NCBI RefSeq assembly: GCF_050920415.1
Contig: NZ_CP169309.1
Length of the DNA: 64,000 nucleotides
Reading direction: 5' to 3' (one strand)
Origin: Escherichia coli
Lineage (GTDB): Bacteria; Pseudomonadota; Gammaproteobacteria; Enterobacterales; Enterobacteriaceae
Part shown: piece by piece, positions 10,187-36,531 of the stretch
Numbering within the stretch: position 1 is the first letter of the stretch
Layout: each line of letters opens with the position of its first letter
Notes under the pieces: generated by a model
Database searches by the model: none
Told to the model about the DNA's origin: nothing
Seen by the model: only the letters and a program-made list of their open reading frames with translations
Made by a program: the position numbers and the translations under genes

Positions 10187-10208
10187 TCATATTTACAAAT
10201 CTTTATAA

Positions 10209-12409: not shown

Positions 12410-12413
12410 ACTG

Positions 12414-13667
12414 TCAGGACTCCTCATGCTCTGATTCAGGTTGACGATCCCACGACAAACGCGGGTCAAACGTCATCGCAGAAAACATTGTCATTATGAC
12501 GACTAAAGCAAACATTAATGCACCCATTGCTGGATAAATACTCATTAAACCTCCCATACGCACCAGCGCCGAGAGCACCGCGATGACGAAAACGTCAATC
12601 ATTGACCAGCGGCCTACAAACTCTACAACTTCGTAAATCAAATGCATTCTTTCACTGTCGCGCTTGCCATGCCCTTTGGCATCCCAGCACAGCCAGCCAA
12701 TCGCAATCATCTTTAACGTTGGCACCATAATACTGGCCAGGAAGATAACCGCAGCGACGGGATAAGAGCCTTCACTCCATAATAAGATGACACCAGCAAG
12801 AATCGTCGACGGCATTTTCGAGCCTAATAAATCCGTCACCATGATGGGCAAAATATTCGCCGGGAGATACAGCATGATGGACGTAACAAGCAGTGCGAGT
12901 GTCCATTGCAGGCTGTTTCTACGTCGAACGTATCCTTTCGTGCCACAGCGTGGGCACACTGGATCACCAGCTGGAAGAATTGCCGTGCAACAGGAGCACG
13001 AACGCAGCCCCTGACGTATCCCCGTGACGCCCGGTTTTAGCGGCTGACGCAATTCTGGCATTGGGGCGATATCGTCCCATAACCAGCGACGATCAACGCA
13101 CTGAAAGGCGCGCAGTTGCAGGACACAAAATAAACACCATGGGAGAAAGCTGCTGCCTACACCAATGCTGCCGTAGGCCATCAGTTTAACGAAACTCACC
13201 AGCACACCGGCGAGGAAAATCTCCGCCATTCCCCATGTTTTGAGTTGAAAAAGCACCCGTGCCAGTTGCTCTTTTAAACGGACCGGTAATTGTGCGCGAT
13301 TAACCAGTAACAGAATAGTTATCAGGCAAAAAGCGGGAACCAGTTGCACAAACAACAGGAAAAAGGTGCCGAGGCTGGCGTAGTCCTCAGAAAAAAGCAC
13401 GCTGGGAATTTCCAGTAATGTAATTTCACTGGTGACTCCTGCAACGTTCATTTTCACAAAAGGAAACAAGTTGGACAGCAACAGCATGAACAGTGCAGCC
13501 AACGCATAGGCGGTGGGACGCTGCCGAGGGGCATCCCACGCCACGGTTAACGTTGTGCCACACCGGGGACATGCCGCTTTCTGACCATGCTCAAGGCGCG
13601 GTAACGCCACCAGCATGTCACACTGCGAGCACAGGATGTGCTTCGCGGCATGATGATGTTCGCACAT
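12414..13667 (-). CDS. pqiA: paraquat-inducible inner membrane protein PqiA
   Basis: 417 aa with paired CxxC zinc-ribbon-like motifs and hydrophobic segments. Confidence 0.9.
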   Translation of the reverse strand: MCEHHHAAKHILCSQCDMLVALPRLEHGQKAACPRCGTTLTVAWDAPRQRPTAYALAALFMLLLSNLFPFVKMNVAGVTSEITLLEIPSVLFSEDYASLGTFFLLFVQLVPAFCLITILLLVNRAQLPVRLKEQLARVLFQLKTWGMAEIFLAGVLVSFVKLMAYGSIGVGSSFLPWCLFCVLQLRAFQCVDRRWLWDDIAPMPELRQPLKPGVTGIRQGLRSCSCCTAILPAGDPVCPRCGTKGYVRRRNSLQWTLALLVTSIMLYLPANILPIMVTDLLGSKMPSTILAGVILLWSEGSYPVAAVIFLASIMVPTLKMIAIGWLCWDAKGHGKRDSERMHLIYEVVEFVGRWSMIDVFVIAVLSALVRMGGLMSIYPAMGALMFALVVIMTMFSAMTFDPRLSWDRQPESEHEES

Positions 13668-13796
13668 TGGTACTCCTTAATGATGCGCTATTATACAGAT
13701 TGCTAACAAAGCGCTGGTTTTCGTGCCAGATAAACGTTACACATCTGGCAATTTTACCGTTGTCAGCAGCCTCTGTTTAAATCGACTATTTTGCGA

Positions 13797-15704
13797 TCAG
13801 CCACCATTTTTTAACGCTTCAAGATACTCCCAGCGTTCAAAGGCTTGCTCCAGCTCCTGCTCCGCAGCAGCCATATCAGCGAGCACTTTTTGCGTCTGCT
13901 CATGCGGCTGACTAAAGAAGGCAGCATCCGCCACCTGCGTCTGTAGGGCTTCCAGCTTCGCCTCCAGCTCTTCGAGCAATTGCGGCAGTTGCTCCAATTC
14001 GCGCTGCAATTTATAGCTTAGTTTGCTACTGCTGCGTTTTACAGTTTCTGCTTTTGGCGCGGCGGCTTCTTCGGTTTTTTTCACCGCAGGCTGTTTAAGC
14101 GCCACATACTGTTCTTGCTGACCACGGGCATCATGATAACCGCCGACATAACGACCAATTTTACCGCCGCCTTCGAAGATCCAGCATTCTGTAACCGTGT
14201 TATCGACAAACTGACGATCGTGGCTCACCAGCAATACCGTGCCCTGGTAGCTGTCGATCAGTTCTTCCAGCAATTCCAGCGTTTCGACATCAAGGTCGTT
14301 GGTCGGTTCGTCAAGAATCAATAAGTTGCTTGGTTTGAGGAACAAACGCGCCAACAACAAGCGGTTACGCTCACCGCCAGATAGCGCACGTACCGGCGTC
14401 ATCGCCCGTTTCGGATGGAACAGGAAGTCCTGCAAATAACCCAGTACATGGCGTGGTTTGCCATTTACCATCACCTCTTGTTTGCCTTCGGCCAGGTTAT
14501 CCATCACCGTTTTATCGGGATCCAGTTCCGCGCGGTGCTGATCGAAATAAGCCACTTCCAGTTTGGTACCGACGTGAATACGTCCGCTATCTGGTTGAAG
14601 TTGATCTAGCATCAGTTTCAGCAGCGTGGTTTTGCCGCAGCCGTTCGGACCAATCAAGGCAATTTTGTCGCCACGTTGAACCTGGGCAGAAAAATCTTTC
14701 ACCAGTTGCTTACCGTCAACCTGGTAGCAAACGTCTTCCATTTCGAAAACGATCTTACCGGAGCGGCTGGCCTCTTCCACCTGCATCTTCGCCGTCCCCA
14801 TGACCTCACGGCGCTGGCTACGTTCACGGCGCATTGCTTTCAGGGCGCGTACGCGGCCTTCATTACGGGTACGGCGCGCTTTGATCCCCTGGCGGATCCA
14901 CACCTCTTCCTGCGCCAGTTTGCGATCGAACTCGGCATTTTGTAGTTCTTCCACGCGCAGGGCTTCTTCTTTTTCCAGCAGGTACTGGTCGTAATTGCCA
15001 GGATAGGTCACCAGCTTGCCGCGATCGAGATCGACAATGCGCGTCGCCATATTGCGGATAAACGAACGGTCGTGGGAGATGAAAATAATCGTCCCATTGA
15101 AGGTTTTGAGGAACCCTTCCAGCCAGTCGATGGTTTCGATATCCAGGTGGTTGGTGGGTTCATCAAGCAACAGCACGCGCGGATTACTCACCAGCGCACG
15201 TCCCAACGCCGCTTTACGCAGCCAGCCGCCGGAAAGCGATGACAGCGCAACGTTAGGATCTAACCCCAGCTGTGCCAGCACTTCGTTAATGCGGTTTTCC
15301 AGCTGCCACAGGTTGTGGTGATCCAACTGTTCCTGAACCTTCGCCAGTTCGTTGAGATTTTTCTCGCTCGGGTCGTTCATCACCAGGCGCGAAATATCGT
15401 GATAGCGTTTCAGGTATTCCGCTTGTTCTTCAATGCCTTCGGCAACGAAATCATAAACGCTACCCTCAACGTTACGCGGCGGATCCTGTTGCAGACGAGC
15501 GACAATCAAATCTTGCTCGTAAATAATGCGACCGTCATCCAGCCCTTGTTCACGGTTGAGGATTTTCATTAACGTCGATTTGCCTGCGCCGTTACGGCCT
15601 ACCAGACAAACACGTTCGTTATCTTCGATATGCAGTTCTGCGTTATCGAGAAGCGGCGCGTCGCTGAACGACAGCCATGCGCCATGCATACTGATTAATG
15701 ACAT
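13797..15704 (-). CDS. uup: ABC-F family ATPase Uup
   Basis: 635 aa with two Walker A motifs (GRNGAGKST, GPNGCGKTT) and two LSGG signatures, no transmembrane segments. Confidence 0.95.
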   Translation of the reverse strand: MSLISMHGAWLSFSDAPLLDNAELHIEDNERVCLVGRNGAGKSTLMKILNREQGLDDGRIIYEQDLIVARLQQDPPRNVEGSVYDFVAEGIEEQAEYLKRYHDISRLVMNDPSEKNLNELAKVQEQLDHHNLWQLENRINEVLAQLGLDPNVALSSLSGGWLRKAALGRALVSNPRVLLLDEPTNHLDIETIDWLEGFLKTFNGTIIFISHDRSFIRNMATRIVDLDRGKLVTYPGNYDQYLLEKEEALRVEELQNAEFDRKLAQEEVWIRQGIKARRTRNEGRVRALKAMRRERSQRREVMGTAKMQVEEASRSGKIVFEMEDVCYQVDGKQLVKDFSAQVQRGDKIALIGPNGCGKTTLLKLMLDQLQPDSGRIHVGTKLEVAYFDQHRAELDPDKTVMDNLAEGKQEVMVNGKPRHVLGYLQDFLFHPKRAMTPVRALSGGERNRLLLARLFLKPSNLLILDEPTNDLDVETLELLEELIDSYQGTVLLVSHDRQFVDNTVTECWIFEGGGKIGRYVGGYHDARGQQEQYVALKQPAVKKTEEAAAPKAETVKRSSSKLSYKLQRELEQLPQLLEELEAKLEALQTQVADAAFFSQPHEQTQKVLADMAAAEQELEQAFERWEYLEALKNGG

Positions 15705-15715
15705 TACTATTCCTT

Positions 15716-17824
15716 TCAGGCTGCGGTAATCAGCCAGCAGTTGTGGATCTGGCGGTTACGGGCGAAATCCTGGGAGAGCGTTTTTTGCGTAATTTCTTGT
15801 GCTTTCAGCCCCAGTTTTGCCAGTCCGTCAAGATCCATTCGGAAGCCACGTTTGTTGTTCGAGAACATGATCGTCCCACCAGCACGCAGCAGACGTTTCA
15901 AATCTTTCATCAGCGCCAGATGATCGCGCTGAACATCAAACGCATCTTCCATTCGTTTTGAGTTAGAGAAGGTTGGCGGATCGATAAAGATCAGATCGAA
16001 CTGTTCATTTGCCTCACGCAGCCACGCCAGGCAATCGGCCTGAATCAGGCGATGCGCACGCCCGGTTAGGCCATTCAGACGCAGGTTGCGTTCTGCCCAC
16101 TCCAGATAAGTACGCGACATATCCACGGTGGTAGTGCTGCGTGCACCGCCTAATCCCGCGTGCACGGTGGCGCTCCCGGTATAAGAGAACAGGTTGAGGA
16201 AATCTTTGCCTTTGCTCATCTGACCGAGCATACGACGGGCGATACGGTGATCGAGGAACAGACCGGTATCGAGGTAATCCGTCAGGTTCACCCACAAGTG
16301 AGCGTTATATTCGGTGACTTCGAGAAACTCGCCCTTCTCGCCCAGTTTCTGGTACTGATTTTTGCCCTTCTGGCGTTCACGGGTTTTCAGCACCAGTTTG
16401 TTTGGCGCAATCCCCAGTACAGAAATGGTTGCAGCGATAATATCGAACAGACGCTGACGCGCTTTGTGCGCATCAATCGTTTTTGGCGGTGCATACTCCT
16501 GCACCACCACCCAGTCGGCATAACGGTCAACGGCAACGTTATACTCCGGCAGATCGGCATCATACAGGCGATAACATTCAATCCCTTCCTGACGTGCCCA
16601 CTTCTCGAATTTTTTGAGGTTCTTACGCAGGCGGTTGGCGTAGTCTTCCGCTACCATTGCCGGTTTGCTGTCTGGTGTGCTTTCGGCAACGTGATAATTT
16701 TTCTGTACGCAGTCCAGCGGGCCGTTTTTCGCCTTGTACTGTTTGTCTGCACGCAGCTGCAGGCAGCTTAGCAGATCCGGCGAGGCACTAAACAAAGAGA
16801 GATTCCAGCCACCGAACTGGTTTTTCATGATTCGGCCCAGCAGGCTATGCAGTGCAATCAGCGCCGGTTCGCTGTCCAGACGTTCACCGTATGGCGGGTT
16901 GCTCAACACTGTACCGTACGGCCCTTTCGGCAGCGGATTGGTCAGTTGCGCAACATCTTTCACCTCAAAGGTAATCAGTTCACCAATCCCCGCAAGACGT
17001 GCGTTAGTGCGCGCACGTTGAATCACCCGGGCGTCGCTGTCCGAACCGTAAAAATGAGAGCTATACTCTGCCAGTCCTTTACGGGCGCGAGCTTGCGCTT
17101 CCGCTTTCACTTCCTGCCAGATAGCTTCATCATGCTGCGCCCAGCCGCTAAAGCCCCAACGCCCACGGTGCAAGCCTGGTGCGCGATCGGTCGCCAGCAT
17201 CGCCGCTTCAATCAGCAACGTACCAGAACCACACATTGGATCGAGCAGCGGTGTTCCCGGCTGCCAGCCGGATCGCATCACAATCGCGGCTGCCAGTGTT
17301 TCTTTGATCGGCGCAATACCAGCACGATCGCGATAGCCACGCAGATGTAAACCATCACCACTGAGATCAAGGGCGATACTGGCAGTTTCTTTATGCAGCC
17401 AGACGTTAACGCGGATATCCGGCGCATCGCGATCAACATTTGGACGCGGCAAATTTTTCCGCGTGAAAGCATCGACGATCGCGTCTTTCACTTTCATCGC
17501 GCCGTACTGGCTGTTGCGAATGGTGTCATTTAAACCACTGAAATGGACAGCGAAGGTCGCGCCAGGATTAAACATCTCTGTCCAGTTGATCGCCTGAACG
17601 CCGAGATAGAGGTCTAAATCACTGTAAACCTTACACTCGCCCAGCGGCAACATAATACGCGAGGCCAGGCGGCTCCACATCAGGCTCTGGTAAACAAGCC
17701 GTGTGTCGCCCTTAAAATGGACCCCACCCTGAACCACCTGGCATTCAACGGCCCCCAGGTTTTCCAGTTCAGTTTTTAACAGCTCTTCCAGCCCACGGGC
17801 CGTACTGGCAAACAGAGAATTCAT
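15716..17824 (-). CDS. rlmL: bifunctional 23S rRNA methyltransferase RlmKL (m2G2445/m7G2069)
   Basis: 702-aa ORF recognised as RlmL (YcbY); stop lies 11 bp upstream of the uup start. Confidence 0.9.
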
Positions 17825-19743: not shown

Positions 19744-20754
19744 TTAGATATGGTTAACGATTTCTTTAATCAGCGGCGGTCCTTTAAAAATAAAACCAGA
19801 ATAAATTTGCACCAGTGAGGCCCCCGCAGCAATCTTTTCACGCGCAGCGATAACCGAGTCAATGCCGCCAACACCGATGATCGGTAAGCGACCGTTTAAT
19901 TCCTGAGACAAACGGCGAATAATTTCGGTGCTTTTTAACTGTAGCGGACGACCACTTAAGCCCCCAGTTTGATCGCAATTTTTCATACCCTGTACCAAAG
20001 AACGATCGAGCGTGGTATTGGTTGCAATAACGCCATCAATATTATGGCGAACTAAACTATCGGCAACCTGGATCAATTCTTCTTCAGAAAGATCCGGCGC
20101 GATCTTCACTGCGATCGGCACATATTTATGGTGCATCGCTTGCAAATCATTTTGCTTATTTTTAATCGCGGTTAAGAGATCATCCAGCGCTTCGCCATAT
20201 TGCAGTGTGCGTAGTCCTGGGGTATTCGGCGATGAAATATTGATGGCGATATATCCCGCATAAGCATAGATTTTTTCCATACAAATCAGATAGTCATCTT
20301 TACCCTGCTCCACCGGCGTATCTTTATTTTTGCCGATGTTAATACCCAGGACGCCATCATAATGGGCTTTTTTTACGTTCTCTACGAGGTTATCAACGCC
20401 AAGATTATTAAAGCCCATACGGTTGATCAAACCTTCGGCATCTACCAGACGAAAGAGACGCGGCTTGTCATTACCTGGCTGTGGACGTGGCGTGACGGTA
20501 CCGATCTCGATAGATCCAAACCCCATCGCGCCTAACGCGTCAATGCACTCCCCGTCTTTATCAAGACCGGCTGCCAGACCAAGCGGATTTTTAAACGTCA
20601 GGCCCATGCAGTTAACAGGTTTCGCAGGCACTTTCTGCCGCACCAGTGCTTCAAACGGCGTTCCTGTAATACGGCGTAATTGCTGAAAAGTAAACTCATG
20701 AGCGCGCTCTGGATCGAGCTGGAAAAGGGCTTTACGAACGAAGGGGTAGTACAT
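19744..20754 (-). CDS. pyrD: dihydroorotate dehydrogenase (quinone)
   Basis: 336 aa from [21 protein letters not shown]... Confidence 0.95.
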
Positions 20755-20839
20755 GAACTCTCCTGGATTCCCGGTGTGCAAACCGGGGGCGTATTATGTG
20801 CGAGTTCGGACCAAAAGGGAATTGACCTGCGGCAAAAAA

Positions 20840-20855
20840 AACGCAAACGTTTTCA
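20840..20855 (-). promoter_or_regulatory. PurR box upstream of pyrD
   Basis: aacgcaaacgttttca matches the PurR operator core ACGCAAACGTTTTC; lies about 90 bp upstream of the pyrD ATG. Confidence 0.6.
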
Positions 20856-20864
20856 GAACCTGTT

Positions 20865-21575
20865 TCAGGGCAGATCTTGCTCCTTCTTTGCACTCAAACC
20901 GCCGTAATCATTTATCGCCCGCCAGGCGACATGACACGGTGCTATTGCCTGACACCAGCTTGTCTGACGCTGGCTTTTAGGCGGTACAACTCCCGCATTA
21001 CTTAACGCTTTACCATTTACGCTCACCTGAATCAGGTTAATATAGTACGGCGTTGGGTTAGTGAGTTGCAAACCCTGCGAATTCCGTGACCAGCGTAATT
21101 GTTGATAAGCTTCCAGCGGGTCGCCCGGCAAACCTTCGGGTCGCCAGAACAGTTTAAATACCGAGCGCATCGCTACTTTTACGTTCTGATTTTCTACTTT
21201 GCCGGATGGCACGCTGGCAATGTTTAGTTCAAATAGCGTTTCGCGATCCACAGGCAACATGTCACTTTCCGTTCTCAGTAAGCGCAATGTGCCTGTAGTA
21301 CTTGGCTTCAGAAAAACAAGCGGCGGAGCGGCCAGTAATGGTACTGGCACTGTCGACGCTTCACCCCCGGCCCAACGAGTTGAGCGATTGATTTTACTGT
21401 TAATAAGCCAGGATTCCTGACTGGTATTAGTCAGTGAGATAGATATCGATTCTCTGTGTGCCGGGAAGATAAATCGCGTTCCTCCAACCACCACGCCAGC
21501 CTGCAGTTCACCCGCCACCAGCAGCGATAAAACGGCAAAAATAGAGAGCGTCAATCTGTTCCACGGATTAGTCAT
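20865..21575 (-). CDS. ycbF: putative periplasmic pilus chaperone YcbF
   Basis: PapD-like chaperone sequence; start uncertain (ATG at 21575 gives 236 aa, alternative ATG at 21602). Confidence 0.8.
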   Translation of the reverse strand: MTNPWNRLTLSIFAVLSLLVAGELQAGVVVGGTRFIFPAHRESISISLTNTSQESWLINSKINRSTRWAGGEASTVPVPLLAAPPLVFLKPSTTGTLRLLRTESDMLPVDRETLFELNIASVPSGKVENQNVKVAMRSVFKLFWRPEGLPGDPLEAYQQLRWSRNSQGLQLTNPTPYYINLIQVSVNGKALSNAGVVPPKSQRQTSWCQAIAPCHVAWRAINDYGGLSAKKEQDLP

Positions 21576-22086
21576 AATGAAGTACAAATGTCGCGCTGGC
21601 ATTTACTTTACCCGACTGCACATCGCTATTGACAGGTCGCAATTGCGCATAAAAAGTTAATGGCACCTTACCACTGTGTAAGATGTAGTCTTTACTCGCC
21701 TGGTTAAGCGGAATCAATATCTTCGCATCATCCAGAATCGCAATCGCTAACCCACTGGCGGTATCCGTACCACTTTCAATGGACAACATTTCGCTCTTCA
21801 TTCCGTCGGGTGTTCCTGAAAAAGTGACGTCAACGGTGCTGACATCTGTTCCGCAATCCTGCAAATTAATGATGAAAGATTTCTCCGGGCCATAATTCCC
21901 ATGAGAAAAACGTGTCAGTGAGACATCGCCTAACTGCACATTGCTTTGCTTGCTATCCTGTGCAAGCACGCATGTATTACGGCGAAACGATCCGCTGATG
22001 TTAACCGTGCCATCATGGGCAAACACCTCACAGCTCCCCATCCATCCCACCAGGCACAGAATCCAGATTATTCGTTTCAACGTCAC
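21568..22086 (-). CDS. ycbV: fimbrial-like protein YcbV
   Basis: about 172 aa with GTG start and signal peptide; fimbrial subunit-like. Confidence 0.8.
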   Translation of the reverse strand: MTLKRIIWILCLVGWMGSCEVFAHDGTVNISGSFRRNTCVLAQDSKQSNVQLGDVSLTRFSHGNYGPEKSFIINLQDCGTDVSTVDVTFSGTPDGMKSEMLSIESGTDTASGLAIAILDDAKILIPLNQASKDYILHSGKVPLTFYAQLRPVNSDVQSGKVNASATFVLHYD

Positions 22087-22089
22087 TCC

Positions 22090-22632
22090 TTACTGATAAA
22101 CCAGATCAAAATAGAGAACCGCCGTCGCATTACCGCCCGTTGCTCCCGCCTTAGTGGACTTATAACGAAGTTGATATTTGAGTGTGTTATCCCCCGCTTT
22201 TAAAGGTGTAAGAGGTTGGACCTGATTGAGCGGGATTTCTTGTTGACTTTGCGCATCAAGAATTTGCACAGCAATCCCCGTTGCCATACCACCACTTCCG
22301 TCTGTGTCAGTTAGTTTGAGTAGTGTCGGCGCAAGGGGGTCAGCCTCGCCGCTAAAAAGGACGTCCGCGCCAGCAATACCAGCGGCACAACCGGTGATAT
22401 CGATACTCAAATCAGCAGCAGTGCTTACGGTATTCGCGGTCTGAAAATCACTGATATTAAAATCACCAATATGAATATTTTGTAATGCGCTTTTGGTGGC
22501 GACATCACAGCCCTGATCGACCACATTACCATAAATATGCATACTGACTTGTTCAGGCCCAGCCATCCCTACATGGGTGTTAAGAAGGCTAAAGAACAAG
22601 ATAACGCACTGAGATATAGTTTTTTTCTTCAT
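22090..22632 (-). CDS. ycbU: fimbrial-like protein YcbU
   Basis: 180 aa with signal peptide; fimbrial subunit-like. Confidence 0.85.
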   Translation of the reverse strand: MKKKTISQCVILFFSLLNTHVGMAGPEQVSMHIYGNVVDQGCDVATKSALQNIHIGDFNISDFQTANTVSTAADLSIDITGCAAGIAGADVLFSGEADPLAPTLLKLTDTDGSGGMATGIAVQILDAQSQQEIPLNQVQPLTPLKAGDNTLKYQLRYKSTKAGATGGNATAVLYFDLVYQ

Positions 22633-22643
22633 ACGTTCACGCG

Positions 22644-26305
<3,662 letters not shown>

Positions 26306-26329
26306 CTCGCTCTCTTAACTGAAGACGGC

Positions 26330-27031
26330 TTACGATTTACAGTTGAGTTGCGGCGTTTCCGCCCCGTAGTCATTGATGGTTCGGTACGTTACGCGACTGT
26401 TTTGAGCACCCTTTGGCAGAGGGAATTGGTATTTATCAAATGGGGAGATCATTTGATTTTTAACTACTTTTCCACCTATTTTCAGGTCTGTCAGGGTAAT
26501 GAAATAAGGTGTTGGGTTACTGACCGTAACTATGTCAGCTGACGAAGTGCAACGCAGTTTCGCCGGAGCCTCGGCTAAGGGATACGCTAAACCTTTTGGT
26601 CGCCAGAAAAGTTTGATGACGCTTTGTGTGGCAATCTTCAGGGTATTGCCTTCTTCCCGCTTCGTTGTTGAAGGGACTGCCCGTACGCTGGTGAAGAAAA
26701 GAGTTTCTCTGTCTTTCGCCAATGGCGCACCAATGTACATAATGCGTAACAGATTCTCATTTGCCGGATTCAAGACAAATAGCGGTGGTGTTATAATAAA
26801 ATCCGCTGATTTTTTATTAACTGGTGTCATCACCCAAGACTGAATAAGATAAGAAACATCCGGACTGGTGTTACGTACACCAAGTGAAATTTGCTCTTCA
26901 CCTTCTGAATAAACAAGACGTGTTGCTGCAAGTCCAATCCCGCCTTTACCTGCCGCCCATGCGGATGAACAGCTAAGTAATATTGCTGTTAAACTTACGG
27001 TCACAATTCCCTTTGTTATGCAAGTTTTCAT
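26330..27031 (-). CDS. elfD: periplasmic fimbrial chaperone ElfD
   Basis: 233-aa PapD-like chaperone. Confidence 0.9.
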   Translation of the reverse strand: MKTCITKGIVTVSLTAILLSCSSAWAAGKGGIGLAATRLVYSEGEEQISLGVRNTSPDVSYLIQSWVMTPVNKKSADFIITPPLFVLNPANENLLRIMYIGAPLAKDRETLFFTSVRAVPSTTKREEGNTLKIATQSVIKLFWRPKGLAYPLAEAPAKLRCTSSADIVTVSNPTPYFITLTDLKIGGKVVKNQMISPFDKYQFPLPKGAQNSRVTYRTINDYGAETPQLNCKS

Positions 27032-27113
27032 ATATAGTCACTCTTAAAAAATATGAATGTCCCCTCCAGAACACTGGAGGGGGACTAATTAATAAAACAA
27101 TTAATGTTTTATA

Positions 27114-27653
27114 TTAATAATAGTTAATATGGAAGTTTGTTACCGCATTAACATTACCTGAAGTGGCTTTACCCGTAGCGATATAATCAACTTTAAAGGT
27201 CAACGTCTGATCTCCATTCTGCAACAAAATGTTCCCGGTTTCTGTGTCTGGCTTGATGGTCGTTGTGCCATCATTCATGTACATTTGCAGGGCCACGTTT
27301 GTAGCAGCATCAGAAGAGGCCTGATTAGCAAACGCTGTAATCTGCGTAGTATCCGCAGTGCCATTAAAGGTGAACGTTGCATTTTTTGTTACGGTAATAT
27401 CACAATCTGTTAATTCGATTGGCACATCAGTTTGTACCCCAGATACCTGGCCATTGCTTTGCAACTTCGTAGCACTAACATCTGGCAAAGTCACCACGGA
27501 ATCTTTCATCGCAGCTACCAGCGTACACGCTGGGGCAATGACTTTACCATTAAATGTTACTGAGCCATCCGTGATAGCATTATCATCAGCAGCCATAACA
27601 CTGGACGTTGCACATACCACAGTTATAAACGCCGTCAATACACTTTTTTTCAT
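27114..27653 (-). CDS. elfA: major fimbrial subunit ElfA
   Basis: 179 aa from MKKSVLTAFITVVCATSSVMA...; ends in a Tyr-rich C-terminus (HINYY). Confidence 0.85.
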   Translation of the reverse strand: MKKSVLTAFITVVCATSSVMAADDNAITDGSVTFNGKVIAPACTLVAAMKDSVVTLPDVSATKLQSNGQVSGVQTDVPIELTDCDITVTKNATFTFNGTADTTQITAFANQASSDAATNVALQMYMNDGTTTIKPDTETGNILLQNGDQTLTFKVDYIATGKATSGNVNAVTNFHINYY

Positions 27654-28008
27654 CGTTATCATCCTGATCTTTTCGTAAATATGATAATGCCTTTAAATGA
27701 CATTAGACTTAATAATAACAATAACTGTCCGCCATTTAAATCAAGCATACTTAATCCAATAAGTGACAAATCGTTAATTTATAGATTTCATGAATATATT
27801 CTTATTGCCTGAACGAGTAATTCATTGATTCAACATCGAATGAACATCCAATAAATAAATACACGTGATATATATCCCTCAATCCTTAGTTTATTTTTAG
27901 AAAAAGATACACAAATTTTATATTTGGCATTTTCTTGTCTTTCCGACAAACTGACAGAATTGTTATCAAAGTAAAGAATAAAAGAACAGTTGGTTATAAG
28001 GAGGGAGT
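27654..28008. promoter_or_regulatory. AT-rich divergent control region between elfA and ssuE
   Basis: about 355 bp that is visibly AT-rich with A/T tracts. Confidence 0.5.
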
Positions 28009-28584
28009 ATGCGTGTCATCACCCTGGCGGGGAGTCCTCGTTTTCCTTCTCGCTCCAGTTCTTTGCTGGAATATGCGCGGGAAAAACTGAATAACCTGGA
28101 TGTCGAGGTTTATCACTGGAATCTGCAAAACTTCGCCCCGGAGGATCTGCTCTATGCCCGTTTCGATAGTCCGGCCCTGAAAACTTTTACCGAACAGCTG
28201 CAACAGGCCGATGGGTTAATTGTCGCCACACCTGTGTATAAGGCCGCCTATTCCGGAGCGCTGAAAACCCTGCTCGATCTGCTGCCAGAACGTGCGTTGC
28301 AAGACAAAGTGGTACTGCCGCTGGCAACGGGCGGTACAGTGGCTCACCTTCTGGCGGTCGATTACGCGCTTAAACCGGTATTAAGCGCGCTGAAAGCCCA
28401 GGAGATCCTGCACGGCGTGTATGCCGATGACTCACAGGTGATTGATTACCAACATAAACCACAGTTCACGCCGAATCTACAAACCCGACTTGATGCCGCG
28501 CTCGACACCTTCTGGCAGGCGCTGCACCGCCGCGATGTCCAGGTTCCTGACCTTCTGTCTCTGCGAGGTAACGCCCATGCGTAA
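28009..28584 (+). CDS. ssuE: NAD(P)H-dependent FMN reductase SsuE
   Basis: 191 aa MRVITLAGSPRFPSRSSSLLEYAR...; SD aaggaggga upstream. Confidence 0.95.
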   Translation: MRVITLAGSPRFPSRSSSLLEYAREKLNNLDVEVYHWNLQNFAPEDLLYARFDSPALKTFTEQLQQADGLIVATPVYKAAYSGALKTLLDLLPERALQDKVVLPLATGGTVAHLLAVDYALKPVLSALKAQEILHGVYADDSQVIDYQHKPQFTPNLQTRLDAALDTFWQALHRRDVQVPDLLSLRGNAHA

Positions 28585-29536
28585 GATCATTAAACTGGCG
28601 CTGGCGGGATTGCTTAGCGTCTCTACACTCGCGATTGCCGCAGAGTCGTCTCCAGATGCGTTACGTATTGGCTATCAGAAAGGCAGTATTGGTATGGTGC
28701 TGGCAAAAAGCCACCAATTATTGGAAAAACGCTATCCGAAAACCCAAATCTCGTGGGTGGAGTTCCCCGCTGGGCCGCAAATGTTGGAAGCGTTAAACGT
28801 TGGCAGTATTGATCTCGGCAGTACGGGGGATATTCCGCCAATCTTTGCTCAGGCTGCCGGAGCTGATTTGCTGTACGTGGGCGTCGAACCGCCGAAGCCA
28901 AAAGCCGAAGTGATTCTGGTGGCAGAAAACAGTCCGATCAAAACCGTAGCCGATCTTAAAGGTCACAAAGTTGCCTTTCAGAAAGGTTCCAGCTCGCACA
29001 ATCTTTTACTACGCGCACTACGCCAGGCCGGGCTTAATTTCACGGATATCCAGCCCACTTACCTGACGCCTGCCGATGCCCGCGCCGCGTTCCAGCAAGG
29101 TAACGTCGACGCATGGGCTATCTGGGATCCCTACTACTCCGCTGCGTTATTACAGGGCGGCGTGCGGGTGCTGAAAGACGGCACCGATCTCAATCAAACT
29201 GGCTCGTTTTATCTGGCTGCCCATCCGTATGCAGAAAAAAACGGCGCATTTATTCAGGGTGTACTGGCAACCTTTAGTGAGGCCGATGCGTTAACCCGCA
29301 GCCAGCGCGAGCAAAGCATCGCTTTACTGGCAAAAACGATGGGCTTACCAACGCCGGTGATTGCCTCTTATTTAGATCATCGCCCCCCTACCACCATCAA
29401 ACCGGTTAACGCCGAGGTTGCCGCCTTACAGCAGCAAACGGCAGATCTGTTTTATGAAAACCGTCTGGTGCCGGAAAAAGTCGATATTCGCCAACGTATC
29501 TGGCAGCCCACTCAACTGGAAGGAAAACAATTATGA
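28577..29536 (+). CDS. ssuA: aliphatic sulfonate periplasmic binding protein SsuA
   Basis: 319 aa from [21 protein letters not shown]; ORF-track start at 28442 is an extension inside ssuE. Confidence 0.9.
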
Positions 29537-30678
29537 GTCTGAATATGTTCTGGTTTTTACCGACCCACGGTGACGGGCATTATCTGGGAACGGAAGAAGG
29601 TTCACGCCCGGTTGATCACGGTTATCTGCAACAAATTGCACAAGCAGCGGATCGTCTGGGCTATACCGGTGTGCTGATCCCAACGGGGCGCTCCTGCGAA
29701 GATGCGTGGCTGGTTGCCGCGTCGATGATCCCGGTGACGCAACGGCTGAAGTTTCTTGTCGCCCTGCGTCCCAGCGTAAACTCTCCTACCGTTGCCGCCC
29801 GCCAGGCCGCCACGCTGGATCGTCTCTCTAACGGACGCGCGTTGTTTAATCTGGTCACAGGCAGCGATCCGCAAGAGCTGGCAGGCGACGGCGTATTCCT
29901 CGATCATTGCGAGCGTTACGAAGCCTCGTCTGAATTTACACAGGTCTGGCGGCGCTTATTGCAGGGCGAAACCGTCGATTTTAACGGTAAACATATTCAT
30001 GTACGCGGAGCAAAACTGCTCTTCCCGCCGATTCAACAGCCCTATCCTCCGCTTTACTTTGGCGGCTCGTCAGACGTCGCCCAGGATCTGGCCGCTGAAC
30101 AGGTTGATCTCTACCTCACCTGGGGCGAACCACCGGCGCTGGTAAAAGAGAAGATCGCGCAAGTGCGGGCGAAAGCTGCCGCACATGGACGCAAAATTCG
30201 TTTCGGTATTCGCCTGCACGTGATTGTCCGCGAAACTAACGACGAAGCGTGGCAGGCCGCTAAGCGCTTAATCTCCCATCTTGATGATGAGACCATCGCT
30301 AAAGCACAAGCCGCGTTTGCCCGCACCGATTCCGTGGGGCAACAGCGAATGGCGGCGCTACATAACGGCAAGCGCGACAATCTGGAGATCAGCCCCAATT
30401 TATGGGCAGGCGTTGGCTTAGTGCGCGGCGGTGCCGGGACGGCGTTGGTGGGCGATGGTCCGACGGTCGCCGCGCGAATCAACGAATACGCTGCGCTTGG
30501 CATCGACAGCTTTCTGCTTTCTGGTTATCCGCATCTGGAAGAAGCGTATCGGGTCGGCGAGTTGTTGTTCCCACATCTGGATATTGCCATTCCGGAAATT
30601 CCCCAGCCACAACCGCTGAATCCGCAAGGCGAAGCGGTGGCGAATGATTTTATCCCCCGTAAAGTCGCGCAAAGCTAA
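29533..30678 (+). CDS. ssuD: FMNH2-dependent alkanesulfonate monooxygenase SsuD
   Basis: 381 aa; 4-bp overlap with ssuA. Confidence 0.95.
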
Positions 30679-30689
30679 GGAACAAAATG

Positions 30690-31481
30690 ATGGCAACGCC
30701 AGTGAAAAAGTGGTTATTGCGCGTTGCCCCCTGGTTTTTACCGGTGGGCATCGTGGCGGTGTGGCAACTGGCCTCCTCAGTTGGCTGGCTGTCGACGCGT
30801 ATTTTGCCCTCTCCGGAAGGAGTGATGACGGCGTTCTGGACGCTCTCCGCCAGTGGCGAATTGTGGCAACATCTGGCGATCAGCTCCTGGCGGGCGTTGA
30901 TTGGATTTTCAATTGGCGGATCGCTGGGGTTGATTCTGGGACTGATAAGCGGACTGTCGCGCTGGGGAGAAAGGCTGCTGGATACCTCAATTCAGATGTT
31001 GCGCAACGTGCCGCATCTGGCGCTGATCCCGCTGGTGATTTTGTGGTTTGGCATTGATGAATCCGCAAAAATCTTTCTGGTGGCGCTCGGCACGCTATTC
31101 CCCATTTATATCAACACCTGGCACGGCATCCGTAATATCGATCGCGGTCTGGTGGAAATGGCGCGTAGCTATGGATTATCCGGCATACCGCTGTTTATCC
31201 ATGTGATCCTGCCTGGTGCCCTGCCCTCAATTATGGTCGGCGTACGTTTTGCGTTGGGCCTGATGTGGCTGACGCTGATTGTTGCCGAAACTATTTCTGC
31301 CAATTCCGGCATTGGTTATCTGGCGATGAATGCGCGGGAGTTTTTGCAAACGGATGTGGTGGTAGTCGCCATTATTCTCTACGCCCTGCTCGGCAAACTT
31401 GCTGACGTCAGCGCGCAGCTGTTAGAGCGCCTCTGGCTGCGCTGGAACCCGGCTTATCATTTGAAGGAGGCCACGGTATGA
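30690..31481 (+). CDS. ssuC: aliphatic sulfonate ABC permease SsuC
   Basis: 263 aa from [10 protein letters not shown]...; multiple transmembrane segments. Confidence 0.9.
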
Positions 31482-32245
31482 ATACTGCTCGTCTGAACCA
31501 GGGCACACCCTTGTTACTCAATGCAGTAAGCAAACATTACGCGGAAAATATCGTCCTGAATCAACTGGATTTACATATTCCGGCAGGTCAGTTTGTGGCG
31601 GTGGTTGGCCGCAGCGGTGGTGGCAAAAGTACCCTGCTGCGCCTGCTGGCAGGTCTGGAAACGCCAACCGCAGGCGATGTGTTAGCGGGTACCACACCGC
31701 TGGCTGAGATTCAGGAAGACACGCGAATGATGTTTCAGGATGCGCGTCTGCTACCGTGGAAATCGGTGATTGATAACGTTGGGTTAGGCCTTAAAGGCCA
31801 GTGGCGCGATGCGGCGCGTCGGGTGCTGGCTGCAGTAGGGCTGGAGAATCGCGCGGAGGAATGGCCTGCCGCACTTTCTGGCGGGCAGAAACAGCGTGTG
31901 GCGCTGGCAAGAGCGTTGATTCATCGACCGGGTTTATTATTGCTTGATGAACCGCTCGGGGCGCTGGACGCCCTGACTCGGCTCGAGATGCAGGATTTGA
32001 TTGTGTCACTTTGGCAGGAGCACGGCTTTACCGTACTGTTGGTGACGCATGATGTGAGCGAAGCGGTAGCAATGGCGGACCGGGTGTTGTTAATTGAAGA
32101 GGGAAAAATTGGTCTGGATTTGACGGTGGATATCCCCCGTCCGCGCCGATTAGGGTCGGTGCGATTAGCGGAGCTGGAAGCGGAAGTGTTGCAGCGGGTA
32201 ATGCAGCGTGGGCATTCTGAACAACCGATTCGACGTCATGGTTAA
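31478..32245 (+). CDS. ssuB: aliphatic sulfonate ABC ATP-binding protein SsuB
   Basis: 255 aa with Walker [10 protein letters not shown] and LSGGQKQR signature; 4-bp overlap with ssuC. Confidence 0.95.
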
Positions 32246-32248
32246 TAT

Positions 32249-32445
32249 GCCGGATGTGGCGCACAAAACCAGCGGTTTCAACGGATTGTAGGCCTGATAA
32301 GACGCGTCAAGCGTCGCATCAGGCATTTGGGCACGGCTGCCGGATGCGGCGTGAACGCCTTATCCAGCCTACAAAACCAGCATTTTCAACGGACTTGTAG
32401 GCCTGATAAGACGCGTCAAGCGTCGCATCCGGCATTTGGGCTCAA
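32249..32445. repeat. REP/BIME cluster between convergent ssuB and pepN
   Basis: two near-identical ~68-bp units (32265-32332 and 32372-32441) separated by the REP-type sequence gccggatgcggcgtgaacgccttatccagcctac. Confidence 0.85.
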
Positions 32446-32450
32446 AAGTA

Positions 32451-35063
32451 TCAAGCCAGTGCTTTAGTTATCTTCTCGTACAGATCTCCAGAGAGATTTT
32501 CCAGCCCTTTCAACTGCTCCAGCGCCGCGCGCATTTTCTCCTGACGTTTGGCATCGTAACGCTTCAGGCGAATCAGCGGTTCAATCAGACGTGAAGCCAC
32601 CTGCGGGTTACGGCTGTTGAGGTCGGTAAGCATTTCCACCAGGAACTGGTAACCGCTGCCATCTTCGGCATGGAACGCTGCCGGGTTGCTGCCCGCAAAT
32701 GCCCCAATCAACGAACGAATGCGGTTCGGGTTGCTCATGGTAAATGAGCGATGCTGCAACAGACCACGCACCGTCTCCAGCACATTTGCCGCCGGACTCG
32801 TGGCTTGCAGGATAAACCATTTATCCATCACCAGACCGTCCTGATGCCACTTGTCGTCGTACTCCTGCATCAGCGCGTCACGGCATGGCAGCTGTGCGGC
32901 AACCGCCGCAGAAAGCGCCGCCAGCGCATCGGTCATATTGTTTGCTTCATGGTACTGCTTGCTTACCAGCACGTCAGCCAGATGCGTTTCACCAAAAGCG
33001 AGGAAGCGCAGGCAGGCATTACGCAGAGTGCGTTTTGCAATATCTTCATGCTCAACGCGGTACTCGCTCTGATAATTTGCGTTATAAATAGCCAGCAGCT
33101 CATCCGCCAGTTCAGTCGCCAGAGTACGGGTAAGTGCTTCGCGTACTTCGGCAATAGCAATCGGGTCGATGATATCGAACAGTTCCGCCATTTCATTGAC
33201 GGATGGCAGCGTCAGAATTTCTGCCGCCAGTGCCGGGTCAATCTTCTCATCCAGCAGCACCGCGCGGAAAGCATCGGCAACGTGTGCGGGTAAAGACAAT
33301 GGTTGACCTTGCTGATGACGGGCGACGTTCAGTTTGATGTAGGTTGCCAGCAGGCTTTGTGCCGCATCCCAGCGGGAGAAATCATTACGCGCATGACGCA
33401 TCAGGAAGGTCAGTTGCTGATCGCTCCACTTATATTCCAGTTTCACTGGCGCAGAGAATTCACACAGCAGTGCGGGCACCGGCTGGAAGTAGACATTATC
33501 AAAGACAAAGGTCTGTTCCGCCTGGGTGACGTTCAGTACCGAATTCACCGGGTGACCGCCTTTCTGCAACGGGATCACTTTGCCTTCGTTGTCATACAGT
33601 TCAATGGCAAACGGAATATGCAGCGGCTGTTTTTCTGCCTGATCCGGCGTAGCAGGCGTGCGCTGGCTGATGGTCAGGGTGTACTGCTCGGTTTCCGGAT
33701 TATAGTCGTCTTTGACGGTCACAACCGGCGTACCGGACTGGCTGTACCAACGGCGGAAATGGGAGAGATCGACATTTGACGCATCTTCCATCGCCTGAAC
33801 AAAGTCGTCGCAGGTTGCCGCACTGCCATCATGGCGCTCGAAATAGAGCTGCATCCCTTTCTGGAAGTTTTCTTCGCCCAGCAGAGTGTGGATCATGCGA
33901 ATCACTTCCGCGCCCTTCTCATAAACGGTCAGGGTGTAGAAGTTGTTCATTTCAATAACCATATCCGGGCGGATCGGGTGCGCCATCGGGCTGGCGTCTT
34001 CCGCAAACTGCAATCCGCGCATGGTGCGCACGTTGTTGATACGGTTTACTGCGCGGGAACCAAGATCAGAGCTGAATTCCTGATCGCGGAAGACGGTTAA
34101 GCCTTCTTTCAGGCTGAGCTGGAACCAGTCGCGGCAGGTCACACGGTTACCGGTCCAGTTATGGAAATATTCATGACCAATAACGCGCTCAATATCGAGA
34201 TAATCTTTATCGGTCGCGGTATCGATGCGCGCCAGTACATACTTAGAGTTAAAGATGTTAAGACCTTTATTCTCCATTGCGCCCATATTGAAGAAATCCA
34301 CCGCGACTATCATATAGATGTCGAGGTCATACTCCAGACCGAAGCGTTCTTCATCCCACTTCATGGAATTTTTCAGCGAGGTCATCGCCCACGGTGCACG
34401 GTCGAGATTACCACGATCAACATACAGCTCTAGCGCCACTTCGCGACCAGAACGCGTGGTGAAGGTGTCGCGCAGTACATCAAAGTCACCTGCCACCAGC
34501 GCAAACAGGTAGCACGGTTTCGGGAACGGGTCCTGCCATTGTACCCAGTGGCGTCCGTTTTCCAGTTCGCCTTGCGCAACGCGGTTACCGTTGGAAAGCA
34601 GGAACGGGTATTTGGTTTTATCGGCAATAATTTTGGTGGTAAAACGCGCCAGCACGTCCGGGCGGTCGAGATAATACGTAATATGGCGGAAACCTTCGGC
34701 TTCACACTGGGTGCAAAGCGCATCGCCTGACTGATAAAGCCCTTCCAGCGCAGTATTCGCCGCTGGGCTAATTTCATTAACGATCTTGAGCGTAAAACGC
34801 TCCGGCAAATTACTGATGACCAGTGCGCCCTCTTCTTCTTTCCAGGCGGTCCACGGCTCATCATTAATATGAACAGAAACCAGTTTAAGATCTTCGCCAT
34901 CAAGACGAAGCGGAGCATCTGATGCACCATGACGGACAGCCTGGCTGACCGCGGTAACGACCGTCTTTTGCGCGTCCAGGTCAAAGGTCAAGTCAATATC
35001 AGTAATCTGGTAATCCGGCGCACGATAATCGTGACGGTATTTGGCTTGTGGCTGTTGAGTCAT
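32451..35063 (-). CDS. pepN: aminopeptidase N
   Basis: 870 aa with GAMEN and HEYFH zinc-binding motifs. Confidence 0.95.
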   Translation of the reverse strand: MTQQPQAKYRHDYRAPDYQITDIDLTFDLDAQKTVVTAVSQAVRHGASDAPLRLDGEDLKLVSVHINDEPWTAWKEEEGALVISNLPERFTLKIVNEISPAANTALEGLYQSGDALCTQCEAEGFRHITYYLDRPDVLARFTTKIIADKTKYPFLLSNGNRVAQGELENGRHWVQWQDPFPKPCYLFALVAGDFDVLRDTFTTRSGREVALELYVDRGNLDRAPWAMTSLKNSMKWDEERFGLEYDLDIYMIVAVDFFNMGAMENKGLNIFNSKYVLARIDTATDKDYLDIERVIGHEYFHNWTGNRVTCRDWFQLSLKEGLTVFRDQEFSSDLGSRAVNRINNVRTMRGLQFAEDASPMAHPIRPDMVIEMNNFYTLTVYEKGAEVIRMIHTLLGEENFQKGMQLYFERHDGSAATCDDFVQAMEDASNVDLSHFRRWYSQSGTPVVTVKDDYNPETEQYTLTISQRTPATPDQAEKQPLHIPFAIELYDNEGKVIPLQKGGHPVNSVLNVTQAEQTFVFDNVYFQPVPALLCEFSAPVKLEYKWSDQQLTFLMRHARNDFSRWDAAQSLLATYIKLNVARHQQGQPLSLPAHVADAFRAVLLDEKIDPALAAEILTLPSVNEMAELFDIIDPIAIAEVREALTRTLATELADELLAIYNANYQSEYRVEHEDIAKRTLRNACLRFLAFGETHLADVLVSKQYHEANNMTDALAALSAAVAAQLPCRDALMQEYDDKWHQDGLVMDKWFILQATSPAANVLETVRGLLQHRSFTMSNPNRIRSLIGAFAGSNPAAFHAEDGSGYQFLVEMLTDLNSRNPQVASRLIEPLIRLKRYDAKRQEKMRAALEQLKGLENLSGDLYEKITKALA

Positions 35064-35282
35064 AAATAACCTTTAGCATCTTTTATAGAGTCTGGTGTTC
35101 AGTCTATTCCTGTTGCGTAAATCGCGCTATGCAGAATCTTCATCTTTTCAGGTACAAACGCCTTTATTGCTACATTTTTATAACATACGCAGCGCAATAC
35201 CATCGACCAGAAAGGTGACATATGGTGTGATCGGGGTTCAATAAATTACGAAACAAGGTATACTCCAGCAGTTCCTGAAGAT

Positions 35283-35299
35283 GTTTATTGTACTAAACG
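35283..35299 (+). promoter_or_regulatory. NadR operator upstream of pncB
   Basis: tgtttattgtactaaac: TGTTTA-N6-TAAAC palindrome 30 bp upstream of the pncB ATG. Confidence 0.6.
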
Positions 35300-35328
35300 C
35301 TCCTGTACGAGGACGCTACTGCGCACCT

Positions 35329-36531
35329 ATGACACAATTCGCTTCTCCTGTTCTGCACTCGTTGCTGGATACAGATGCTTATAAGTTGCATATGCAGCAA
35401 GCCGTGTTTCATCACTATTACGATGTGCATGTCGCGGCGGAGTTTCGTTGCCGAGGTGACGATCTGCTGGGTATTTATGCCGATGCTATTCGTGAACAGG
35501 TTCAGGCGATGCAGCATCTGCGCCTGCAGGATGATGAATATCAATGGCTCTCAGCCCTGCCTTTCTTTAAAGCCGACTATCTTAACTGGCTACGCGAGTT
35601 CCGCTTTAACCCGGAACAAGTCACCGTGTCCAACGATAATGGCAAGCTGGATATTCGTTTAAGCGGCCCGTGGCGTGAAGTCATCCTCTGGGAAGTTCCT
35701 TTGCTGGCGGTTATCAGTGAAATGGTACATCGCTATCGCTCACCGCAGGCCGACGTTGCGCAAGCCCTCGACACGCTGGAAAGCAAATTAGTCGACTTCT
35801 CGGCATTAACCGCCGATCTTGATATGTCGCGCTTCCATCTGATGGATTTTGGCACCCGCCGCCGTTTTTCTCGCGAAGTACAAGAAACCATCGTTAAGCG
35901 TCTACAACAAGAATCCTGGTTCGTAGGCACCAGTAATTACGATCTGGCGCGTCGGCTTTCCCTCACGCCAATGGGAACACAAGCACACGAATGGTTCCAG
36001 GCACATCAGCAAATCAGCCCGGACCTTGCCAACAGCCAGCGAGCTGCACTTGCTGCCTGGCTGGAAGAATATCCTGACCAACTTGGCATTGCGTTAACCG
36101 ACTGTATTACCATGGATGCGTTCCTGCGAGATTTCGGCGTAGAATTTGCCAGCCGCTATCAGGGCCTGCGTCATGACTCTGGCGACCCGGTTGAATGGGG
36201 CGAAAAAGCCATTGCACATTATGAGAAGCTGGGAATTGATCCGCAGAGTAAAACGCTGGTTTTCTCTGACAATCTGGATTTACGCAAAGCGGTTGAGCTA
36301 TACCGGCACTTCTCCTCCCGTGTGCAATTAAGTTTTGGTATTGGGACTCGCCTGACCTGCGATATCCCCCAGGTAAAACCCCTGAATATTGTCATTAAGC
36401 TGGTGGAGTGTAACGGTAAACCGGTGGCGAAACTTTCTGACAGCCCTGGCAAAACTATCTGCCACGATAAAGCGTTTGTTCGGGCGCTGCGCAAAGCGTT
36501 CGACCTTCCGCATATTAAAAAAGCCAGTTAA
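35329..36531 (+). CDS. pncB: nicotinate phosphoribosyltransferase
   Basis: 400 aa from [24 protein letters not shown]...; ORF-track start at 35281 is an extension. Confidence 0.95.

Follow-up and report, generated by a model that had tools for sequence, protein, structure and literature searches.

The elfADCG-ycbUVF operon of Escherichia coli K-12 (b0938-b0944; also ycbQRSTUVF) encodes the ELF, or Ycb, fimbriae. It is a cryptic operon (PMC4914927; PMC5797941) that is induced as one unit by SlyA, which is described as acting by antagonising H-NS repression (PMC5797941); its fimbriae, which are assigned to the gamma-1 class, are produced once the operon is forced on (PMC7098969) and bind laminin and heparin (PMC4914927). 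The orthologous system of Salmonella enterica, bcfABCDEFG(H) (PMC7886704; PMC5343171), is already listed with two chaperones, BcfB and BcfG (PMC5583245), and Auf (aufABCDEFG) has the same component set as Ycb, namely a major subunit, two minor subunits, an adhesin, an usher and the chaperones AufB and AufF (PMC12928451). Auf and Ycb have been reported to be closely related and mutually exclusive (PMC3559732). Type 1 fimbriae (fimAICDFGH) belong to the same gamma-1 class and are built from the same kinds of part, but a single chaperone, FimC, serves all of their subunits and their gene order differs. Two chaperones per operon have been called unusual in papers on the E. coli Ecp system (PMC10038029; PMC4461329). 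In that system and in CupB of Pseudomonas aeruginosa one proximal and one distal PapD-like chaperone, about 30% identical, are encoded per operon, and non-redundant functions have been proposed for both pairs, CupB2/CupB4 (PMC3031594) and EcpB/EcpE (PMC4461329); however, these are other chaperone-usher clades, Ecp being of the alternative pathway, with no operon-level homology to Ycb. Here we describe the elfADCG-ycbUVF locus found in a 64,000-nucleotide stretch of E. coli contig NZ_CP169309.1 (assembly GCF_050920415.1), referred to below as the window, and in particular its second, distal chaperone, YcbF.

The locus consists of seven consecutive open reading frames on the minus strand, at 20865-27653, which encode four fimbrial subunits, an usher and two PapD-like chaperones and are flanked by ssuE and pyrD. 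In order of transcription they are:

elfA (ycbQ), 27114-27653, minus strand: major fimbrial subunit of 179 aa, with a signal peptide and an N-terminal donor-strand segment
elfD (ycbR), 26330-27031, minus strand: proximal PapD-like chaperone of 233 aa, of the canonical FimC/SfaE-like type
elfC (ycbS), 23705-26305, minus strand: outer-membrane usher of 866 aa
elfG (ycbT), 22644-23714, minus strand: two-domain, tip adhesin-like subunit of 356 aa, with the pilin domain at residues 211-356
ycbU, 22090-22632, minus strand: minor fimbrial subunit of 180 aa, BcfE-like
ycbV, 21568-22086, minus strand: minor fimbrial subunit, FimF/BcfF-like
ycbF, 20865-21575 (K-12 start) or 20865-21602 (start called by the Prokaryotic Genome Annotation Pipeline, PGAP), minus strand: distal PapD-like chaperone of 236 or 245 aa

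The locus is an intact copy of the known elfADCG-ycbUVF operon, and a real gene cluster with overwhelming homology support rather than a chance pattern. The RefSeq names of the genes, taken from the 100%-identical NZ_CP169399.1 (E. coli MFDS1022581), are elfA, elfD, elfC, elfG, ycbU, ycbV and ycbF. The Fimbrial family (PF00419) was found in all four subunits (E 1e-15 to 1.6e-28), and all Pfam matches lie far above the gathering thresholds. ElfA (Fimbrial, E 1e-15), whose top NCBIfam model is BcfA followed by LpfA, FimI and FimA, is 95.5% identical in amino acid sequence to K-12 ElfA. ElfD carries PapD_N (1.1e-34) and PapD_C (2e-15), matches SfaE (5.5e-51) and FimC (1.2e-49) in the PDB and has BcfB as its top NCBIfam model (204 bits). 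ElfC contains PapC_N (PF13954, 3e-48), Usher (PF00577, 7e-222) and PapC_C (PF13953, 1e-18) and scores 1735 bits against the equivalog NF011740 (cut-off 995); its next models, FimD (948 bits) and LpfC (853 bits), would place it in the gamma-1 class. In ElfG the Fimbrial match is confined to residues 211-356, the sole PDB match is 5afo (E 2e-25, residues 33-356) and the best NCBIfam models are LpfD and BcfD. YcbU (Fimbrial, 4.9e-15) has BcfE as its top model (124 bits), and YcbV (Fimbrial, 3.3e-19) matches FimF (5e-19) and FimI (4e-18) in the PDB and the FimF (116 bits) and BcfF (112 bits) models of NCBIfam. Finally, YcbF carries PapD_N (9.6e-28) and PapD_C (3.1e-14) and aligns over its full length with FimC (PDB, 6.4e-34). 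A prior reading of the window from its letters alone (the sequence-only reading) had already recognised the seven genes, their order, common orientation and tight packing, the second PapD-like chaperone at the distal end and a 10-bp overlap of elfC and elfG. All of this is borne out by the open reading frames and the Pfam matches: the junctions, in gene order, measure +82, +24, -10 (elfC/elfG, exactly 23705-23714), +11, +3 and -8 nt (ycbV/ycbF). Taken as a whole, the locus is very probably an intact, rare-allele copy of the gamma-1 operon elfADCG-ycbUVF with a functional, anciently diverged distal chaperone.

Compared with K-12, the window has the same seven genes, gene order, overlaps, ssuE/pyrD position and SlyA-site sequence; it differs in that its allele is divergent, in an ACG at the position of the ycbV ATG and in a G5-T where ycbF of K-12 has G7. 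The likeness to Bcf, for which our comparison rests on NCBIfam models, Bcf-like loci and literature, extends position by position, with BcfA, BcfB, BcfD, BcfE and BcfF, and PRK15192 for YcbF, as the best or second-best non-self models, and Bcf-like loci of Enterobacter have the same gene order as the window. In contrast, Bcf has a different chromosomal location, and the sampled Bcf-type loci have an extra subunit gene and some of them a bcfH-like DsbA/ScsC-like gene, neither of which is present in the window. The resemblance to type 1 fimbriae lies in the parts (ElfD to FimC, 1e-49; YcbV to FimF, 5e-19; the usher to FimD), whereas the adhesin of the window is LpfD/BcfD-like and not FimH-like.

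The sequence-only reading had allowed that ycbF might be a degenerate paralogue without the conserved subunit-binding residues; we found the opposite. Arg8 and Lys112 (PapD numbering) of these chaperones anchor the C-terminal carboxylate of the subunit, and the PPL and LPxDRE surface motifs of domain 1 have a role in usher targeting. R8 and K115 of mature YcbF align with R8 and K112 of FimC, K115 corresponding to K112 of PapD (numbering checked against 1pdk), and the motifs APPLVFL and LPVDRETLF are present. R8, K112, P-x-L and D-x-E are invariant in 20 of the 20 chaperones aligned, with DRE in all but one single chaperone; R8, K115, P-x-L (PPL in YcbF) and DRE are kept in YcbF and in all 9 distal chaperones aligned. 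The G1 strand retains alternating hydrophobic residues (V-K-V-A-M in YcbF, L-Q-L-A-I in FimC), and, compared with FimC and ElfD, the F1-G1 loop is shorter by 2-3 residues. YcbF scores 515 bits against its own NCBIfam equivalog, NF008483 (cut-off 357), then 206 bits against NF011739/PRK15192 and 94 bits against BcfB. The ratio of nonsynonymous to synonymous substitution (dN/dS, Nei-Gojobori) of ycbF is 0.166 between the window and K-12, 0.174 between the window and Escherichia sp. E1V33 and 0.138 between K-12 and E1V33, values that point to purifying selection, somewhat relaxed; those of elfA (0.10), elfD (0.09-0.11) and ycbV (0.09-0.16) and, for comparison, pyrD (0.01-0.04) were obtained likewise. 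By every available sequence test YcbF thus appears to be a functional chaperone. ElfD and YcbF are 33% identical, and a repeat search of the locus found only one stretch, a direct repeat of 26 nt, 88% identical, at 21130-21155 (ycbF) and 26589-26614 (elfD), which encodes the KLFWRP(E/K)GL segment with the G1 strand and Lys112 and is the sole nucleotide-level trace of their common origin.

Independent transcription of ycbF, which had also been raised, finds no more support. The start of ycbF lies within the last codons of ycbV (ATGACTAA), an overlap of 8 nt that becomes 35 nt if the PGAP start is used. The 8-nt overlap recurs in Pseudocitrobacter, Buttiauxella, Enterobacter and Escherichia sp. 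E1V33; in an Auf-type locus it appears only once aufF is re-started at an internal Met. In a consensus scan no promoter-like site was found upstream of ycbF and no terminator-like site at the ycbV/ycbF junction, which, together with the overlap, fits coupled expression; ycbF may well be translationally coupled to ycbV. The same scan gave no excess over shuffled sequence for the operon as a whole (11 promoter-like sites versus 14.0, and 13 terminator-like sites versus 8.4). The elements outside the coding sequences that bear on expression are:

ssuE-elfA divergent intergenic region, 27654-28008, minus strand: 355 bp, AT-rich, regulatory
GC-rich hairpin of 9 bp, 27061-27082, minus strand: in the 82-nt elfA-elfD spacer
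weak AU-rich hairpin with a U-run, 20837-20854, minus strand: 10 nt past the ycbF stop, a possible weak operon terminator
PyrD leader, 20749-20822, minus strand: Rfam RF02373 (97.9 bits), 42 nt downstream of the ycbF stop

The G+C content falls to 34.5% in 27400-27999, compared with about 47-50% in the operon, and this AT-rich elfA promoter region agrees with the cryptic status known from the K-12 literature. A sigma-70-like match, by consensus only, occurs in the spacer at 27740-27712 (TTTAAA-17-TATTAT, with a TG). In K-12 SlyA binds the ssuE-elfA intergenic region, and TCAGGATGATAA has been proposed as a possible site (PMC5797941); this putative SlyA site is present unchanged at 27667-27656, 8 bp upstream of elfA. 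The leader directly downstream of ycbF, which was all that an Rfam scan of the locus detected, indicates an independent regulatory start for pyrD and the end of the elf/ycb unit; the region of the weak hairpin (fold of 20760-20880, minus strand) folds no better overall than shuffles (z = -0.9). For 27020-27125 (minus strand), in contrast to its shuffles (-15.3 +/- 3.2 kcal/mol), the minimum free energy is -29 kcal/mol (z = -4.33). Stem-loops follow papA and fimA, and by analogy with them the elfA-elfD hairpin is probably an intra-operon attenuator or an mRNA-stabilising stem-loop that governs how much major subunit is made relative to the minor ones; the terminator scan missed it because its U-run is displaced.

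The sequence-only reading had called a second chaperone at the distal end atypical. Against a generic one-chaperone operon this holds, but within the Ycb/Bcf/Auf lineage it does not, since there synteny in related genera and the literature make it the rule. YcbF homologues down to about 39% identity were all distal chaperones, whereas matches at 37% identity or less were ordinary single proximal chaperones. The order major subunit-chaperone-usher-two-domain adhesin-small subunit-small subunit-chaperone was found in Pseudocitrobacter, Citrobacter, Escherichia sp. E1V33, Buttiauxella and Enterobacter, with the Pseudocitrobacter and Citrobacter loci occupying the same ssuE/pyrD site, and the two-chaperone architecture is conserved in at least six genera. 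In a scan of genome contigs with ElfC only 4 loci (Pseudocitrobacter and E1V33) were recovered, none of them without the distal chaperone. An E. coli locus between glgP and glpD (L003), which we term Auf-type and do not equate with the auf operon of CFT073, and a metagenomic relative (L020) have instead the order usher-small subunit-small subunit-chaperone-adhesin. For L003 chaperone identity is only 36-40%, and its adhesin gene follows the block of YcbU-type, YcbV-type and chaperone genes; its distal chaperone nevertheless groups within the YcbF clade, and its subunits are orthologous by position. With the L003 distal chaperone gene a megablast search retrieved 228 genomes only, and the reported mutual exclusivity of Auf and Ycb was not confirmed at this sensitivity.

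In a neighbour-joining tree the 9 distal chaperones are monophyletic (99% bootstrap), and for the Ycb-type loci the branching of the distal subtree matches that of the proximal one. Across loci the subunits are likewise positional orthologues: bootstrap support is 100% for the adhesin, 90% for the YcbU type (76% with the Auf-type locus, whose fourth gene groups with YcbU) and 46% for the YcbV type. The reciprocal NCBIfam picture agrees in kind, ElfD having BcfB as its best model and YcbF its own model followed by PRK15192, within the Bcf model series. The distal second chaperone is a known trait of the Ycb/Bcf/Auf clade and an ancestral one, at least as old as the Ycb/Bcf-like/Auf-type split; YcbF appears to be the counterpart of BcfG and of the Auf-type second chaperone, in the position of AufF, inherited together with the ycbU-ycbV genes. 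The distal chaperones differ from the proximal ones by an insertion of 7-8 residues after the LINSKI strand and a slightly shorter F1-G1 loop, and they have an invariant Arg in the G1 strand (A-x-R-x3-K) and an invariant C-x5-C pair in domain 2 (C182/C188 of mature YcbF). We rejected the equation of this pair with the C207-C212 disulfide of PapD, as the PapD cysteines stand after the INDYGG motif and those of YcbF before it. Single chaperones from simple Cedecea and Serratia operons, and not its own proximal partners, form the sister group of the distal clade (94%), a placement that is biased because the outgroups were picked as the nearest non-distal matches to YcbF. Doubtful, though worth stating, is a further proposition: that the YcbF/BcfG/Auf-type distal chaperones are a distinct, ancient, client-restricted subfamily, marked by the C-x5-C pair, the loop insertion and the G1 Arg and closer to the Cedecea/Serratia single chaperones, which entered the Ycb/Bcf/Auf ancestor as a ycbU-ycbV-chaperone module and serves FimF-like adaptors.

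Which subunits YcbF serves had been judged not evident from sequence, and fairly so; synteny and rate covariation provide weak leads only. The YcbU-YcbV-chaperone block and its overlapping junction are constant, while the adhesin gene may stand before it or, as in L003 and L020, after it. In partial Mantel tests over 14 loci, controlled for usher divergence, YcbF covaried with YcbV (r 0.32, p 0.006) and YcbU (r 0.29, p 0.02) and not with ElfA (r 0.02) or ElfG (r 0.01), whereas the ranking for ElfD was the opposite, with ElfA, ElfG (r 0.21) and YcbU above YcbV. We tentatively propose, at somewhat under an even chance, that YcbF is a specialised and partly dispensable chaperone for the FimF/BcfE-F-like adaptors YcbV and YcbU, dispensable in our working model because ElfD could substitute for it. 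No binding or assembly role for YcbF, BcfG or AufF was found in the literature searched.

Several observations weigh against this proposal. The covariation is small, becomes non-significant with one representative per group and negative with a mean-distance control, and it is confounded, being inseparable from gene adjacency or recombination. AlphaFold2 models of fusions of the mature chaperone, a (GGGGS)6 linker and mature YcbV, made with 14 paired orthologous rows, did not discriminate between YcbF (predicted local distance difference test score, pLDDT, 79.1; predicted template modelling score, pTM, 0.50) and ElfD (79.6 and 0.50), the confidence at this pTM being only moderate. Of the K-12 ycb mutants, only the one deleted for ycbF showed no invasion defect, whereas those in ycbU and ycbV were impaired (PMC4914927); this argues that YcbU and YcbV do not strictly depend on YcbF in the conditions used. 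Evolution is also faster in distal than in proximal chaperones: between the same pairs of genomes the identities are 93 versus 97%, 78 versus 85%, 53 versus 65% and 76 versus 92%, the first three being those of YcbF and ElfD. Of 5,426 complete genomes 4,062 carry ycbF at full length, and when 59 carriers were sampled at even spacing, 9 (about 15%) had a net indel or an IS1 insertion in the gene. The lesions are independent, comprising a T deletion in O157:H7, the loss of a G in AH02, an IS1 insertion in EC2 and an IS1-mediated deletion in strain 2452. Lastly, the assembly steps of our model come from homology and inference, and its expression and H-NS/SlyA control from the K-12 literature.

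The lack of an invasion phenotype, unlike in the other six mutants, the disrupted copies, the higher substitution rate and the equal AlphaFold scores would all suit a YcbF that is a redundant spare with no dedicated client, ElfD assembling the whole fibre and ycbF persisting by linkage while it is slowly lost. We consider this unlikely, if not negligibly so: a dN/dS of 0.14-0.17 is far under neutrality, the catalytic-type residues and the clade invariants (C-x5-C, G1 Arg and loop insertion) are kept across genera whose proteins are 36-57% identical, and the distal clade goes back at least to the Ycb/Bcf-like/Auf-type split. Furthermore, elfC and elfG are pseudogenes too in O157:H7, so the loss of ycbF there reflects the decay of the entire operon and not a specific dispensability of ycbF. 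More improbable still is that the two-domain adhesin ElfG, and not YcbU and YcbV, is the dedicated client of YcbF, by analogy with the proposal for CupB4 with CupB5/CupB6 (PMC3031594). In the Auf-type locus and L020 an adhesin-like gene does follow the distal chaperone gene, the adhesin gene adjoins the YcbU-YcbV-chaperone block in the Ycb/Bcf order as well, and among loci of the Ycb/Bcf gene order alone the residual distances of YcbF and ElfG correlate (r 0.33, p 0.02); however, over all 14 loci that correlation vanishes (r 0.01, against 0.21 for ElfD and ElfG), and the conserved overlapping junction joins ycbF to ycbV and not to elfG. That ycbF is here a degenerate paralogue or an independently transcribed gene we regard as scarcely credible. 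PGAP and the K-12 curators differ on its start (21602 versus 21575), there is no obvious Shine-Dalgarno sequence before the 21575 ATG and the gene is a pseudogene in some other strains; against this stand an intact frame at either length that passes the equivalog cut-off, the retained R8, K112, PPL and DRE, the low dN/dS and a junction that overlaps ycbV and lacks promoter- or terminator-like sites.

Returning to the proposal of a chaperone specialised for adaptors, we envisage assembly as follows. Transcription would run from the AT-rich ssuE-elfA region through ycbF, silenced by H-NS and activated by SlyA as the K-12 literature describes, and the hairpin after elfA would probably skew stoichiometry towards the major subunit. 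After Sec export the subunits would be bound in the periplasm by the PapD-like chaperones through donor-strand complementation; ElfD, as a general FimC-like chaperone, would handle at least the major subunit, and YcbF would preferentially handle the minor subunits YcbV and YcbU. The subunits would then pass to the usher ElfC, and donor-strand exchange would polymerise them. The predicted product is an ElfA rod with FimF/BcfE-F-like adaptors (YcbU and YcbV) and the LpfD/BcfD-like two-domain adhesin ElfG.

The allele carried by the window is rare. Gene by gene it is 93.2-95.6% identical in nucleotide and 92.4-96.8% in amino acid sequence to the K-12 MG1655 operon, and only 2 of 5,426 complete E. 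coli genomes are at least 99% identical over the locus, nearly all others being 90-95% identical. Relative to K-12, the synonymous divergence (dS) is 0.13-0.25 across the operon, 0.46 for ssuE and 0.10 for pyrD, which suggests an old or imported haplotype spanning ssu-elf. Of the two flanks (28009-36000 and 8000-16000), the ssu-pepN side matches most E. coli at 90-95% identity and the pqi/uup side has a best non-self identity of 98.4%; these identities indicate that the source strain as a whole is from an uncommon lineage. In this allele the start-codon alignment places an ACG (22083-22081) at the K-12 ATG of ycbV, with an in-frame GTG (22086) and TTG (22080) on either side as candidate starts; Escherichia sp. 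E1V33 has GTG at the K-12 start position, and the PGAP call is shortened, with a start at 22041 whose product would be without a signal peptide.

Some further observations concern ycbF in other strains. In the O157:H7 strain TW14359 (L022, 2270-7710) and the O157 strain AR-0429 (L014, 2770-8210) RefSeq has elfC frameshifted, elfG with an internal stop and ycbF frameshifted; the T deletion in O157:H7 ycbF follows the codons for KLFWRPEG, and ycbF of O55:H7 RM12579 has its full span of 711 nt. The O157:H7 pseudogenes bear on how the ELF literature is read, as they sit oddly with its being largely O157:H7-based. The G7 homopolymer of K-12 ycbF (L002, about 10150-10160) is the site of the one-G loss that frameshifts the gene in AH02 (L015); in the window the tract is interrupted (G5-T, 21369-21373). 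In strain 2452 (L016, 4509-6120) two copies of IS1A stand in place of the stretch from elfD to most of ycbF, and what is left is elfA and a ycbF remnant of 138 nt. Some relatives carry extra genes 3' of the distal chaperone (L020, 9836-12409; L021, 9694-11379; L005, 10730-11017), either or both of a DsbA/ScsC-like thioredoxin-fold gene (BcfH-like, 281 aa) and a gene for a Wzy_C-domain protein of 561-574 aa. The former is notable because the distal chaperones have an invariant Cys pair; the latter is O-antigen-ligase/O-oligosaccharyltransferase-like and hints at possible pilin modification. After ycbF the window has neither a DsbA/ScsC-like nor a Wzy_C-domain gene.

Databases and papers already cover the operon, including its cryptic status, gamma-1 class and two chaperones. 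A question to which we found no answer in the searchable literature is why, among type-1-like fimbriae, the Ycb, Bcf and Auf lineage has retained a second chaperone under purifying selection throughout the divergence of these genera, although a single one suffices for Fim. The comparative results, namely the monophyly of the distal chaperones, the conserved YcbU-YcbV-chaperone block, the Cys pair, the faster evolution and the repeated loss, narrow the experiments on client specificity, and it is the client specificity of the YcbF/BcfG/AufF subfamily that we believe is worth such experiments. If these chaperones do form a client-restricted subfamily, this would amount to a division of labour within a classical gamma-1 fimbria.

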